IMG/VR virus record: IMGVR_UViG_2896595138_000010
Coordinates: 1 to 7,873 of that record
Strand: one strand, 5' to 3'
Source: a virus
Lineage: Duplodnaviria > Heunggongvirae > Uroviricota > Caudoviricetes
Length of the DNA: 7,873 nucleotides
In this document: positions 1-6,000 of the stretch, piece by piece
Position numbering within the stretch: position 1 is the stretch's first letter
Layout of the letters: each line of letters begins with the position of its first letter
Position numbers: made by a program

Positions 1-3000
1 TTACGTATTTCGATTTGTTCTGGTGTTATCGGAGAGGCTTGGTGTTTTGCCCTGACGCTCATCACGCAGTTGTTTGACCCATCTTGTCATTGTGGAAAGG
101 CCAACATCCATAGCTTTGGCGGCATCTGCCACCGTGTATTTCTGGTCAACAACCAGTTGAGCGGATTCGCGTTTAAACTCTGCGCTAAAATTTCTTTTTT
201 TCATTGGAGCACCTGTGTTGTTCTGAGGTGAGCATATCACCTCTGTTCAGGTGGCCAAATTCAGTGTGCCACTTCAAAAACAATTTCGACGCGTTTCTTG
301 CTCTGACACCAGAAACAAAAGCAGAACGGATGTACCGACGCGATATACAACTCGCGCTAAAACAGGAGAAGGACCGAACAAACGAAACAGCAATGAGACC
401 GTTGCGAAAAGCGACAATAGACAAATTCCCTGAATATATCGACCCGCGCCTGCGTAATTACCGCTCACGCTATGGCGCTATCAGTAATGACTGAGGAATT
501 TACCATGAGAGGACTTGCATACAATCCCGGCATTCTTCCGGCAGAAATGATTATTCGCCAACGCGTAAAGCCAATGCCATCGAGAGAGGAATTGCTTAAG
601 AGAAATTCTTTTCCGTCAGTGAATCAAAACAAATATCTGAATGCTATGTGGCGCAAAGGAGGCAAACAGTGAGCGAAATTGACTATCAGGCACTGCGTGA
701 AAAGGCAGAGAAAGCAACGTGGGGTGTGTGGTCGCTCGAATATGGAGAGGAGAAACTTGATGCTGATGATGCGCTAATTCACCGTGAAGTTGTTGGATAT
801 CTTCCTATTTGCAGAATTGAAGGAGCGCATCCTGAAAGCGGTTTCGATGAAGATTTCCAAATGGAACAGCAGGCCAATGCTGAATTCATCGCCGCAGCCA
901 ATCCGGCTACTGTGCTGACACTGCTGAGCGAGCTGGAAACAGCAAAAAAGCGCATAGCAGAACTGGAAGCCAAACCTGTAAGCCAGACTTACAAGTTGAA
1001 TGAGATGTCGGGCAACTCTCCGGTAATTCCGGATGGTTGGATAAGCTGTAGTGATCGAATGCCTGAAAAGGGCCAGAACGTACTTATTTCGGTGAATTTC
1101 GATAGCTCTCTGGTTGAACCGCTAATATGCTCCGCACGCTATACCGGAGGTACATTCCGGCGTGGAGATGTAACGGTTAAGCCAGGTAATGGTATTGAAC
1201 AGGCAACCCACTGGATAGACTGGCCCCTGAATCTCCAGACAACCAGTATCACTTAAATAAGTGATAGTCTTAATACTAGTTTTTAGACTAGTCATTGGAG
1301 AACAGATGATTGATGTCTTAGGGCCGGAGAAACGCAGACGGCGTACCACACAGGAAAAGATCGCAATTGTTCAGCAGAGCTTTGAACCGGGGATGACGGT
1401 CTCCCTGAACCGCCCCGGGTTTCCTGGAGAGTGTTTTATCTGTGAACTCAGGCTGCCAGATCATCGTTTCCGATGGAAGCATAATAAGCTTTTTCTGCTT
1501 CTGCCGGAGGAGTATGGCCCAGCCTTTCCAGCAATCGTCGATTGTTATACCAGTTCACCCACGTGAGTGTGGCCAGTTCCACTTCTGCACGGTTTTTCCA
1601 GCTCTTACGGTGTATTACCTCCGCTTTGTAAAGACCATTGATGCTCTCCGCCATCGCGTTGTCATACGAGTCGCCTGTACTTCCTGTTGATGCCAGTAAT
1701 CCGGCTTCCTTAAGCCGCTGTGTGTAGGCCAGCGATACATACTGAGAACCTTTATCACTGTGATGGACCGTGCCGGACGGTCGACGGGCCCATAACGCCT
1801 GCTCCAGTGCATCCAGCACGAATGTCGTTTCCATGGACGATGAGACCCGCCACCCCACGATGTATCCGGCAAACACATCAATGATGAACGCCACATAGAC
1901 GAAGCCCTGCCATGTGCTGACGTAAGTAAAATCAGCCACCCACAGCTGGTCAGGTCGTTCTGCCACGAACTGACGGTTTACGCGGTCGCCTGCGGCAACG
2001 GCTTTCCGGCTGATGGTCGTACGGACCTTTTTACCCCGGAGAACACCGGCAAGTCCCATAACCGCCATGAGACGTGCCACAGTGCATCTGGCCACTCTGA
2101 TACCTTCCCGTAACAACTGACGCCAGACTTTACACCGTATACCTTGTGATTTTCATCGTATACGCGCTGTATCTCTTTCTTCAGCCAGTCATCGCGCTGC
2201 GCACGGGCACTGCGTTTATCCGGATGATGTCGCTGTTGCTGACAGTGGTAATACGTTGACGGGGCAATATGCAGTTCGCTGCATAGCGGTCCGCCCCGTA
2301 CTGCTCACGCAGCTTATCCAGCAGTGGCATCATTTTTTCCAGAGGCGGTCGAACTCCGCCTTCGCAAAATAAGCGGAAGCCTGGCGAAGGATATCGTTAC
2401 TGCGGCGCAGTTCACGATTTTCACGCTCCAGCTCTTTCAGACGCTGATGTTCAGCGGTGGTGAGCCCTCCATCACCGCCCCGGTATCCCGCTCATGCTGG
2501 TGAACCCAGACACGCAGAGTCTCCGGCGTACAGCCAATCTTTGGAGCAATGGAACAAATTGTCGCCCATTGTGAGTCATATTCGCCCTGACTTTCCAGAA
2601 CCATACGGACTGCCCGTTGACGGACTTCGGGGAAAAACGAGTATTTTTAGTCATCCTGTTTACCTCTTTCTCAGGAAGTTTAGTCTCCAGGATTCCCGGG
2701 GCGGTTCACCCTCGTTGCCCGGCAACATGGTGTAGCAGCCAGCCAGTTATTTCTCTGGCGTAAGCAATACCAGGAAGGAAGTCTTACTGCTGTGGCCGCC
2801 GGAGAACAGGTTGTTCCTGCCTCTGAACTTGCTGCCGCCATGAAGCAGATTAAAGAACTCCAGCGCCTGCTCGGCAAGAAAACGATGGAAAATGAACTCC
2901 TCAAAGAAGCCGTTGAATATGGACGGGCAAAAAAGTGGATAGCGCACGCGCCCTTATTGCCCGGGGATGGGGAGTAAGCTTAGTCAGCCGTTGTCTCCGG

Positions 3001-6000
3001 GTGTCGCGTGCGCAGTTGCACGTCATTCTCAGACGAACCGATGACTGGATGGATGGCCGCCGCAGTCGTCACACTGATGATACGGATGTGCTTCTCCGTA
3101 TACACCATGTTATCGGAGAGCTGCCCACGTATGGTTATCGTCGGGTATGGGCGCTGCTTCGCAGACAGGCAGAACTTGATGGTATGCCTGCGATCAATGC
3201 CAAACGTGTTTACCGGATCATGCGCCAGAATGCGCTGTTGCTTGAGCGAAAACCTGCTGTACCGCCATCGAAACGGGCACATACAGGCAGAGTGGCCGTG
3301 AAAGAAAGCAATCAGCGATGGTGCTCTGACGGGTTCGAGTTCTGCTGTGATAATGGAGAGAGACTGCGTGTCACGTTCGCGCTGGACTGCTGTGATCGTG
3401 AGGCACTGCACTGGGCGGTGACTACCGGCGGCTTCAACAGTGAAACAGTACAGGACGTCATGCTGGGAGCGGTGGAACGCCGCTTCGGCAACGATCTTCC
3501 GTCGTCTCCAGTGGAGTGGCTGACGGATAATGGTTCATGCTACCGGGCTAATGAAACACGCCAGTTCGCCCGGATGTTGGGACTTGAACCGAAGAACACG
3601 GCGGTGCGGAGTCCGGAGAGTAACGGAATAGCAGAGAGCTTCGTGAAAACGATAAAGCGTGACTACATCAGTATCATGCCCAAACCAGACGGGTTAACGG
3701 CAGCAAAGAACCTTGCAGAGGCGTTCGAGCATTATAACGAATGGCATCCGCATAGTGCGCTGGGTTATCGCTCGCCACGGGAATATCTGCGGCAGCGGGC
3801 TTGTAATGGGTTAAGTGATAACAGATGTCTGGAAATATAGGGGCAAATCCACTGGATGCCGCTACCAGAACCGCCGCAGGAGGTGAAGTGATGGACGATA
3901 ACAGCGATAATGTTATCACCCTGGTGCAGCCAAAATCAGAGGAGGAAGGACTTCTCAACGTTGTGATAACCGACAGAAAAAGCGTCGAGCAAAAATGCTG
4001 TCAGCATATCCGTACAACAATTTCAGAAGTGAATCGTACGATTACCTGCAACCGATGCGGATTGGCTTTAGATCCATTCGAACTTGTTCTCGACCGCGCG
4101 AGAAACGGCGAAAACATCGTGTCTGAGATTAAATCACTTTATGCAAAGCGGGACGCTCTTCGAGAAGCTGTGGCAAAACTTGAACGTGAAGAGAAAAACG
4201 CCAAAGCGCGGTTGCGAGCAGCCAGGACAGCGATACTGTATGCGGAGAATGACCTTAAAAATATTGAGCGGGAGGTGAATCAATGACCTGGCCTGAAGCA
4301 TTCAAAGAGGTAGGAACCGCACTGGCGGTGGCACTGATGATGTATTCGATTTGCCGCTGGAGATAAAGGAATGTTCGCTCTGATTCAACGTGGTCAGATA
4401 TACACCGATAGCGCTGGCTATCCAGTAAAAATCATTCGTAGTACTGATCACTCAGTATTCTTCAAGAGGATGGATGGCTATCCTGGAAGGGTGTGCATCA
4501 GAAAATTCAATAATTTATTCGAACACATTGATCACAGAGAATATCACCAGATCCTGGCTGAAACAGAGCAGGAGAACCATCTGAAAAAATTACGTGCCAT
4601 GCAAAGGAGATAAGCCGATAAAGGTGTTTGAGATAAAGGTGAATATCGGCAATGAATAACAATCCTCGCACTCGCGGGGATTTCTTTTATCTGAACTCGT
4701 TACGGCGAGTTCACCGTCAAGCTTTCTTCAATGCAAAAGCCAATGTGAGGACGCTATGAATACTCAAATTTCTGTCGAAACACTTTCACCAATCACCTAC
4801 AAACAAACCAACGTCATCACCAGCGAACTATTGGCGCAGTTGTACGGAACGGATGTTGTGCGCATCCGGCAAAACCATCATGAAAACAAGTCGCGCTTTG
4901 TTGAGGGGTACACTTCTACAAGGTCGTTGGTGACGAGCTGCGCGCGCTAAAACACAAAGTAGCTTTAAACTACTTTGTGAAAATTGCCCCAAATGCACGC
5001 CACCTCATCCTCTGGACAGAGCGCGGAGCCGCCCGTCACGCGAAGATGCTCGAAACCGATCAGGCATGGGACGTGTTCGAAAAACTGGAGGACGGCTACT
5101 TCAATCAGCGCGAAAAGGTTGCCAACCATCCTCAACCAGTACCGCAACCAGAAAGTAGCCTAGACCGTGCGCGAGCCATGGAAATAGCTTTGAACGTGGC
5201 GGATCGACTGGTGAATATGTTCCCGAATCTGTCCTCAGAATCAAAGCAGGCAGCAGTAGCTGGAGTGTTCAACCCGATTGTTGGTCGCGATGTTGTACCT
5301 CTGCCAGCTATCTCAGAGCACTACTACTCTGCTACGGAAGTCGGCCAGCGCTACGGTATTTCAGCCAACAAGGTAGGACGCATAGCCAACACCTACATGC
5401 TCAAAACAGAAAAGTACGGGAAGTGGTTCATCGACAAATCGGCGCACAATGACAAGCAGGTTGAAACATTTCGGTACAACGAGGCTGGAGTGCACAAAAT
5501 AGAGGAACTCATCGAAGGAGAGCGAAAGGCTGCATGATTTTGACAAGATAGTTTTCCCCAAATGTGGGGAAAAGCCCGAATGGCGCGGCTTACAGCAAGA
5601 TAAGGCCTACATAATTTGACAACACCGCATTAACGGGGCTATATTCCGCTTCATGGTGCTCAAAACACCTTTGCGATAGCGGAAACCGCCCCGTCAGTTA
5701 TGCGGATTTTTTTATGTCTACGACATTGAGAATTCAATGGTCGGGCGTGCGGCTAATAAAACACCCGCAAGGGAAATATGCCCGCCGTCTATCGCCGGTT
5801 TTGAGCGCCCGACCACCCTCTCAAAAGGGGTGAATTCAAAATATGCGATAGGACATAAAACCATGGCTACTCAAATTTCTGTTGAATCCCTTTCCCCAAT
5901 TACCTATAACCACATCCCCGTCATCACTACCGAACTACTGGCACGACTTTACGGCACTGAGACCAACAACATTAAAGTGAACTATACGCGCAATGCCGGG

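Follow-up and report, generated by a model that had tools for sequence, protein, structure and literature searches.

An IS2 copy carrying a nested IS629/IS1203-type element interrupts an Ea22/DUF551 gene in a probable prophage remnant of Shigella boydii

The 7873-nucleotide (nt) stretch of viral DNA analyzed here (hereafter the window; IMG/VR record IMGVR_UViG_2896595138_000010) contains an Ead/Ea22-like gene with a DUF551 domain that is interrupted close to its 3′ end by a copy of the insertion sequence (IS) IS2, which itself harbors a second, nested IS element. The window is an exact match to CP026845.1 (positions 9333–17205 of the locus stretch L008) and very probably represents the stump, proximal to the integrase, that remains of a P22/lambda-type prophage in Shigella boydii, the organism indicated by the cluster names of its proteins. 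Its genes are arranged in the order abc2′ – DUF2737 – Ea22/DUF551 – a 131-amino-acid (aa) gene – a 27-aa open reading frame (ORF) – DUF4222 – two ORF6N antirepressor-type genes – xis – int, and P22-like and lambdoid phages show the same abc2 ... ead ... xis–int order in their early-left region.

The 5′ part of the interrupted gene comprises codons 1–182 and the first base of codon 183 (positions 669–1215, plus strand) and is identical to the corresponding part of the S. boydii protein P0001. At this position, the pentanucleotide CTGGA, which is single-copy in genomes carrying an empty site, is found twice (1211–1215 and 3852–3856), and the intervening 2636 bp (1216–3851) start with TAGACTGG, end with GCAAATCCA and carry imperfect 39-nt terminal inverted repeats (1218–1256/3811–3849). 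In silico deletion of positions 1216–3856, joining 669–1215 to 3857–3891, generates 582 nt in frame, that is 193 codons and a stop, encoding a protein with the C-terminus ...ATHWMPLPEPPQEVK (short form HWMPLPEPPQEVK). IS2 is accordingly positioned after the first base of codon 183 and displaces the last 11 codons (183–193); excision and comparison with relatives place the displaced 3′ end of the gene, consisting of the last two bases of codon 183, codons 184–193 (MPLPEPPQEVK) and the TGA stop, at positions 3857–3891 on the plus strand. In its present state, the reading frame enters the left end of IS2 and stops at 1254–1256 (...HWIDWPLNLQTTSIT*). A first-pass annotation of this DNA had proposed that IS2 interrupts the Ead/Ea22-like gene at a point 11 codons short of its stop and that removal of IS2 together with one CTGGA copy restores a 193-codon ORF. 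Both proposals are borne out, the former by excision and by the intact allele of relatives and the latter by the in-frame excision product, and all of the numbers given for them are correct.

The 2.6 kb of IS DNA noted in the same annotation do contain an IS2, but half of this DNA belongs to a second, nested element (1330 bp of IS2 and 1303 bp). The left part of IS2 (1216–1405, plus strand), defined by comparison with IS2A of E. coli K-12, comprises the left inverted repeat together with the initial 100 nt of orfA (33 codons, ATG at 1306), while its right part (2709–3851, plus strand), defined by ORFs and rejoining, contains the rest of orfA (to 2977), orfB (2935–3840) and the right inverted repeat. 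After removal of positions 1406–2711, IS2 measures 1330 bp, for a reference length of about 1331 bp, and is 99.5% identical to K-12 IS2A (5 substitutions and a 1-nt deletion, namely the loss of one C from the C5 run of the left inverted repeat). The rejoined element has an open 121-aa orfA and an open 301-aa orfB, on the product of which an rve domain was called. Its size, near-identity and imperfect inverted repeats, along with the 5-bp duplication and the empty site in relatives, identify it as IS2. Since orfA is interrupted after 33 codons, this copy is probably not autonomous. The K-12 IS2A copy residing in yaiX shares with it the terminal repeats, the 5-bp target duplication and the orfA/orfB layout, and both copies split a gene into two annotated fragments; the window copy differs by the nested element in orfA and by a run of four C in the left inverted repeat, where IS2A has five.

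The nested element (1406–2708, minus strand, 1303 bp) is of the IS629/IS1203 type within the IS3 family. It is bounded by 25-nt terminal repeats and a CCC duplication (1403–1405/2709–2711), and its identity amounts to 95.5% with an annotated IS1203 and to 99% with intact 1310-bp copies from E. coli. An ALIL frameshift pseudoknot was detected at 2260–2375 (111 bits), which together with the size, the inverted repeats and the 3-bp duplication agrees with this group. The reading frames of the element are broken, as it has 7 nt fewer than intact copies (a 4-nt and several 1-nt deletions). The 4-nt deletion at 2131 is also present in the sister genome CP026877.1 and is therefore considered real.

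Plasmid pE105-3 and E. coli CP131_Sichuan also harbor IS629/IS1203-type elements within IS2, in the same relative orientation. These nesting events are independent of each other, with insertions at IS2 position 190 in the window, 205 in pE105-3 and about 361 in CP131_Sichuan, and with differing duplications. In the two cases outside the window, the nested elements occupy L012 3362–4671 and L015 about 2615–3924. Given three nestings in the same orientation, the first ~360 bp of IS2, which are mostly orfA, may constitute a preferred target region for IS629/IS1203-type elements. We also considered an IS2::IS629 composite moving as a unit. As full-coverage matches elsewhere proved to be adjacent separate copies or independent nestings at other positions, composite transposition is unsupported, and the protein spanning the IS2/nested-IS junction was found solely at the window locus.

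The uninterrupted state of the gene is represented by P0001, a 193-aa S. boydii protein retrieved by protein search that equals the restored product except for the M encoded by the GTG start. This intact form is present on 11 contigs, including the complete genomes CP026846.1 and CP119446.1. Genomes with the intact allele carry it at the same chromosomal locus, between yfaZ plus a MoCF_biosynth gene and the ibs toxin plus a resistance–nodulation–division (RND) efflux operon. In empty-site genomes, window positions 1–1216 and 3842–7873 align at 99.8–100% identity, and CTGGA is single-copy in the S. boydii loci L002–L007 and in the E. coli locus L001. In E. coli FDAARGOS_944, a different DUF551 gene passes uninterrupted through the target site, again with a single CTGGA. 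Since the intact protein is encoded in S. boydii at an uninterrupted site of the same context, the in-frame restoration obtained in silico is not a chance result. Among complete E. coli genomes and phage records, none was found to cover at least 80% of the restored region, which is mosaic.

The interrupted state is not confined to the window. The complete genome CP026877.1 carries the same IS2 insertion with the same nested element, and IS2-fused products were found as a 198-aa form on 17 S. boydii contigs and, with a further damaged N-terminus, as S. dysenteriae forms on 9 and 5 contigs. These S. dysenteriae Ea22 alleles start with MQCATS... and read out of the end of an IS911 remnant (described below), which indicates a further deletion at the 5′ end of the Ea22 gene. 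CP026877.1 for its part has an extra IS3-family element with IS600-like ends in the abc2 fragment (L017 1846–3109, about window 416–418), which from its end sequence we take to be IS600. When one-genome-per-species contigs were scanned for exact patterns of the Ea22/IS2 and IS2/nested-IS junctions, no match was obtained, and probably no genome of that collection carries the insertion.

The location of the cut within the encoded protein was examined on the restored product, which matches Pfam Ead_Ea22 (PF13935) over residues 2–102 (69.6 bits, cut-off 27) and the full DUF551 profile (PF04448) over residues 123–190 (79 bits, cut-off 22). A W-x-PLP motif is present in 110 of the 120 homologues and a one-residue variant in 8 more, each followed by a short tail, which is at odds with the possibility, raised in the first-pass annotation as one that would overturn its proposal, that homologues naturally end at position 1215. 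In an alignment of 34 sequences, W182, M183, L185, P186, E187, P188 and P189 are invariant, and an AlphaFold model based on 34 homologues shows a predicted local distance difference test score (pLDDT) of about 65–88 over residues 121–180 and a last strand at residues 178–184 (the N-terminal half of the model was of low confidence and was not used). As the Pfam match extends to residue 190 and the last modelled strand spans residues 178–184, the cut after residue 182 falls inside the conserved DUF551 domain and not in a linker. The 11 displaced codons, previously regarded as a tail, thus belong to the domain itself, and they include its invariant W-M-x-L-P-E-P-P end as well as part of its last predicted β-strand.

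A search against solved structures with this protein returned no match, and its PHROG matches are all of unknown function. To our knowledge, no function has been assigned to DUF551. One of the closest parallels, ST933Wp78 of phage 933W (Ea22 V2), shows the same two Pfam signatures, the C-terminus ...HWMPLPEPPQEV and a 1-nt stop/start overlap with a phrog_1621 gene; it differs in length (299 aa, versus 193 aa for the restored protein), and the copy in the window is interrupted. Ea22 proteins are modular, combining a coiled-coil region with exchangeable C-terminal domains, of which DUF551 marks the ‘V2’ variant of Shiga toxin (Stx) phages (PMC10834534), and Ea22 of lambda and Stx phages favors lysogeny (PMC7093339, PMC10834534). 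This function was shown for the lambda and Stx-phage proteins, whereas the protein of the window is known here from its sequence.

The present 195-aa product ends in an IS2-encoded replacement tail, which by translation reads IDWPLNLQTTSIT and is followed by a TAA stop (1215–1256, plus strand). The frame of this tail hangs on a CCCC run at 1224–1227, where both K-12 IS2A and the sister genome sharing the insertion have CCCCC. The four-C run and the 195-aa form are found on one contig only, and all other recorded fused forms share a different 16-residue ending, owing to the five C of their IS2 left repeat. That the insertion alters the C-terminus, as previously stated, therefore holds in so far as the tail is derived from IS2, whereas the exact tail IDWPLNLQTTSIT depends on the four-C run of this assembly and may be a polishing error.

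Further differences from relatives are present at positions 38, 2293, 2477–2479, 2628 and 4904. Together with that at 1224–1227, they are single-base (in one case 2-base) differences, and those at 38, 1224–1227, 2477–2479 and 2628 are located in homopolymer runs, while the one at 2293 is not. Such a homopolymer pattern, typical of unpolished long-read assemblies, suggests imperfect polishing. At 4904, one G is missing from a G5 run in the first ORF6N gene (4756–5537), which is thereby split into 64-aa and 186-aa ORFs. S. boydii relatives, among them the sister genome that shares the IS2 insertion, have an intact 260-aa version of this gene, and the frameshift may be an assembly error.

Removal of IS2 also restores a particular junction with the following gene. 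The restored TGA (3889–3891) shares its A with an ATG at 3891–3893, and the AGGAGG Shine–Dalgarno sequence of this next gene (3878–3883, plus strand) is located 7 nt before the ATG, in the Q-E-V codons of the displaced tail. Both the TGATG overlap (3889–3893) and the placement of AGGAGG within the Ea22 tail are as described in the first-pass annotation. The next gene (131 aa, phrog_1621; 3891–4286, plus strand) is, according to PHROG matches and relatives, a kept downstream partner of Ea22/DUF551 genes. It is followed by a 27-codon ORF matching no family (4283–4366, plus strand), the ATG of which overlaps the preceding stop as ATGA, and by the DUF4222 gene identified by profile search (4371–4613, plus strand), the last of this tightly packed run, with a terminator-like hairpin on its 3′ side (4661–4682).

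In phages, homologues of the 131-aa protein are almost always encoded directly after an Ea22/DUF551 gene. The stop and ATG overlap by 1 nt in 933W, 606R7, FDAARGOS_944 and S. boydii and by 11 nt in Enterobacter phage Tyrion, and in every case compared the upstream gene contains GGAGG in its final codons, the downstream proteins being 58–92% identical across the compared pairs. Because the overlap is kept across downstream proteins that are only ~58% identical, the conservation of this arrangement provides good indirect evidence that the two genes may be translationally coupled. With regard to the broken coupled junction proposed earlier, the conserved stop/start overlap and the present separation of the pair are confirmed, whereas the loss of coupling is what we infer from them. 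The RNA around the junction is predicted to form the same small hairpin near the Shine–Dalgarno sequence whether or not IS2 is present, and no significant structure.

Two additional observations concern this junction. An ATG at 3825, inside the right inverted repeat of IS2, is in frame and without stop to 4286 and could specify a 153-aa extended product; no Shine–Dalgarno sequence precedes it, and this extension is probably due to chance. In addition, CCGCAGGAGGTG specifies the ...PPQEV end of DUF551-type Ea22 proteins and at the same time serves as the Shine–Dalgarno sequence of the next gene (3871–3891 and the L018–L020 junctions), and this DNA appears to be under dual constraint. Since the PQEV codons coincide with the Shine–Dalgarno sequence, part of the apparent protein conservation of PQEV may reflect a translation signal.

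The left limit of the stump is set by an IS remnant (1–276, minus strand), presumably IS911 as judged from its sequence, the terminal repeat of which ends at 276 and the orfA of which reads leftwards as a minus-strand orfA-like ORF; HTH_Tnp_1 genes were called at this position in loci L003 and L008. IS911 cuts the prophage within abc2, encoding anti-RecBCD protein 2, of which a 3′ fragment is left (342–494, plus strand; Pfam Anti-RecBCD_p2, profile positions 50–97 of 97 only). The DUF2737 gene follows (505–672, plus strand; Pfam, E 8.8e-32), and its TGA (670–672) overlaps the GTG start of the Ea22-like gene (669–671) as GTGA. In L008, IS911 runs on for ~620 bp to the left and then adjoins a truncated host gene near yfaY/yfaZ. 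There, the remnant (L008 8990–9608) consists of the left end, orfA and part of orfB and links the stump to the host gene, a junction which suggests an IS911-mediated deletion or inversion.

The other end of the window carries xis (6604–6822, plus strand) and int (6800–7873, plus strand), and the integrase side adjoins the ibs toxin and the RND efflux operon, which we take to be mdtA. The two neighboring ORF6N genes share 77–81% identical DNA in their N-terminal halves (4756–5114 versus 5863–6216; repeat families D1 and D2) and have unlike C-terminal halves; from this comparison they appear to be tandem paralogous antirepressor-type genes. A full-length match to the Rfam family sRNA-Xcc1 (5739–5822, plus strand; 78 bits versus a gathering score of 53) is located directly upstream of the ORF6N/P22AR_C antirepressor-type gene (ATG at 5863), and the best promoter-like site of the window (TTGACA-18-TATATT, 5616–5645) lies ahead of this match.

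Taken together, these results are best explained by a stepwise, IS-driven decay of a prophage remnant, in which the insertion of IS2 would be polar and without selective consequence, a reading that we hold to be very probable from the sequence comparisons. In a first step, IS911 would have removed everything upstream of mid-abc2, including the early promoter, a state common to all relatives examined. IS2 would then have inserted into CTGGA at codons 182–183 in a strain ancestral to some S. boydii and S. dysenteriae, duplicating 5 bp, followed by insertion of the IS629/IS1203-type element into orfA of IS2 with duplication of CCC and, later, the 4-nt deletion. Some strains would finally have acquired a further IS at about window 416–418 or lost the 5′ end of the Ea22 gene. 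As the sequence shows, the last 11 codons are replaced by IS2-derived residues and the gene is parted from the partner whose ATG overlaps its stop. Ribosomes would no longer be passed on to the 131-aa gene. Moreover, a transcript entering from the left would have to cross 2.6 kb of largely untranslated IS DNA and would probably be terminated.

Regarding transcription, the locus lacks the early (pL-type) promoter and everything upstream of mid-abc2 in all relatives, whether or not they carry IS2. A consensus scan of positions 1–3300 detected no promoter-like site, and a relaxed scan returned one weak match with a 15-nt spacer within 240–668. The proposal that the insertion cut off the genes from 3891 onward from upstream transcription is thus doubtful, even for the uninterrupted allele, the stump being devoid of an early promoter and having IS911 and host DNA on its left. 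Read-through feeding the downstream genes, as formerly suggested, is unlikely, because 1.3 kb of antisense IS629-type sequence would have to be crossed. With no early promoter left in the stump at this locus, the insertion most likely represents selectively neutral decay rather than regulatory rewiring.

Insertion of IS2 into the gal operon is a classical polar event, and Jaurin and Normark (1983) reportedly described an IS2 hybrid promoter at ampC. Such fusion promoters, in which IS2 supplies the −35 element where a −10 element is correctly spaced, are documented for ampC, acrEF and neoR (PMC9330008). As in these cases, IS2 in the window is located in a tightly packed run of co-oriented genes with its right repeat facing downstream (PMC9330008). 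One could thus envisage that the right end of IS2 provides an outward promoter, as the first-pass annotation had suggested, or a −35 element from which the 131-aa, 27-aa and DUF4222 genes are expressed. The right inverted repeat does end at 3851, which leaves 39 nt to the ATG at 3891, in an orientation able to create fusion promoters, and the insertion has been kept in many S. boydii and S. dysenteriae assemblies. However, no −35/−10 pair with a 15–19 nt spacer bridges the junction, even at a relaxed threshold. Judging from the geometry, the −35 element of the right inverted repeat would be TGGAAA (3830–3835), and the hexamers located 16–18 nt from it (CTGGAT, TGGATG and GGATGC) match TATAAT at no more than two of six positions and lack A2 and T6. 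Furthermore, the right 150 bp of IS2 were without detectable promoter activity in a reporter study, which had selected them for this property (PMC12095673), and retention is also expected of neutral insertions in clonal Shigella. Expression from the right end of IS2 is therefore unlikely. Unlike the known hybrid promoters, the flank offers no suitable −10 element, and that case does not apply to the window; unlike the classical polar insertions, the operon was already without a promoter, leaving little for polarity to act on.

The direction and the reality of the event were weighed in the same manner. The presence of the insertion in both S. boydii and S. dysenteriae, which implies that it is not very recent, would also be compatible with an ancestral insertion and with intact S. 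boydii alleles arising by precise excision of IS2 and one CTGGA copy. We consider this very unlikely, as precise loss of a 2.6-kb element between 5-bp repeats is rare, the intact alleles reside on near-identical flanks (3 substitutions in 4 kb) and all E. coli and phage homologues are uninterrupted. Misplacement of IS elements in a long-read assembly, to which the single-base differences at 1224–1227, 2293, 2477–2479, 2628 and 4904 might lend some credit, has a negligible probability: the same junction is found in the independent complete genome CP026877.1, dozens of independent assemblies encode IS2-fused or junction-truncated proteins, and a perfect 5-bp duplication flanks the element. Some points nevertheless weigh against stepwise, neutral decay. 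A promoter-like site within orfB of IS2 (3326–3354, 9/12 matches) could feed rightward transcription, and the 131-aa gene keeps its strong AGGAGG and an unchanged local fold, which would make it translatable from any transcript that arrives. Polarity, loss of coupling and neutrality are moreover read from the sequence, and the only support for the order of IS2 followed by the nested insertion is the occurrence of the junction protein solely at this locus. A non-neutral insertion, with the downstream module (phrog_1621/27-aa/DUF4222) kept for a promoter in IS2 such as that at 3326–3354, or with the first ~360 bp of IS2 serving as a preferred target of IS629/IS1203-type elements and one IS silencing another, has a low probability.

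Overall, the structural claim is firmly supported, while functional speculation is unsupported; the interpretation given in the first-pass annotation is accordingly retained for the structure of the insertion and set aside for its transcription and promoter proposals. The annotated 195-aa ‘Ead/Ea22-like’ protein is an artefact that arose through fusion of a 193-aa gene with IS2. The insertion, which is polymorphic within S. boydii and occurs in S. dysenteriae as well, can serve as a lineage marker. Stepwise, IS-driven decay of this kind is ordinary and already known, and the insertion described here, of little import beyond annotation, adds one more case of stepwise prophage erosion in Shigella.

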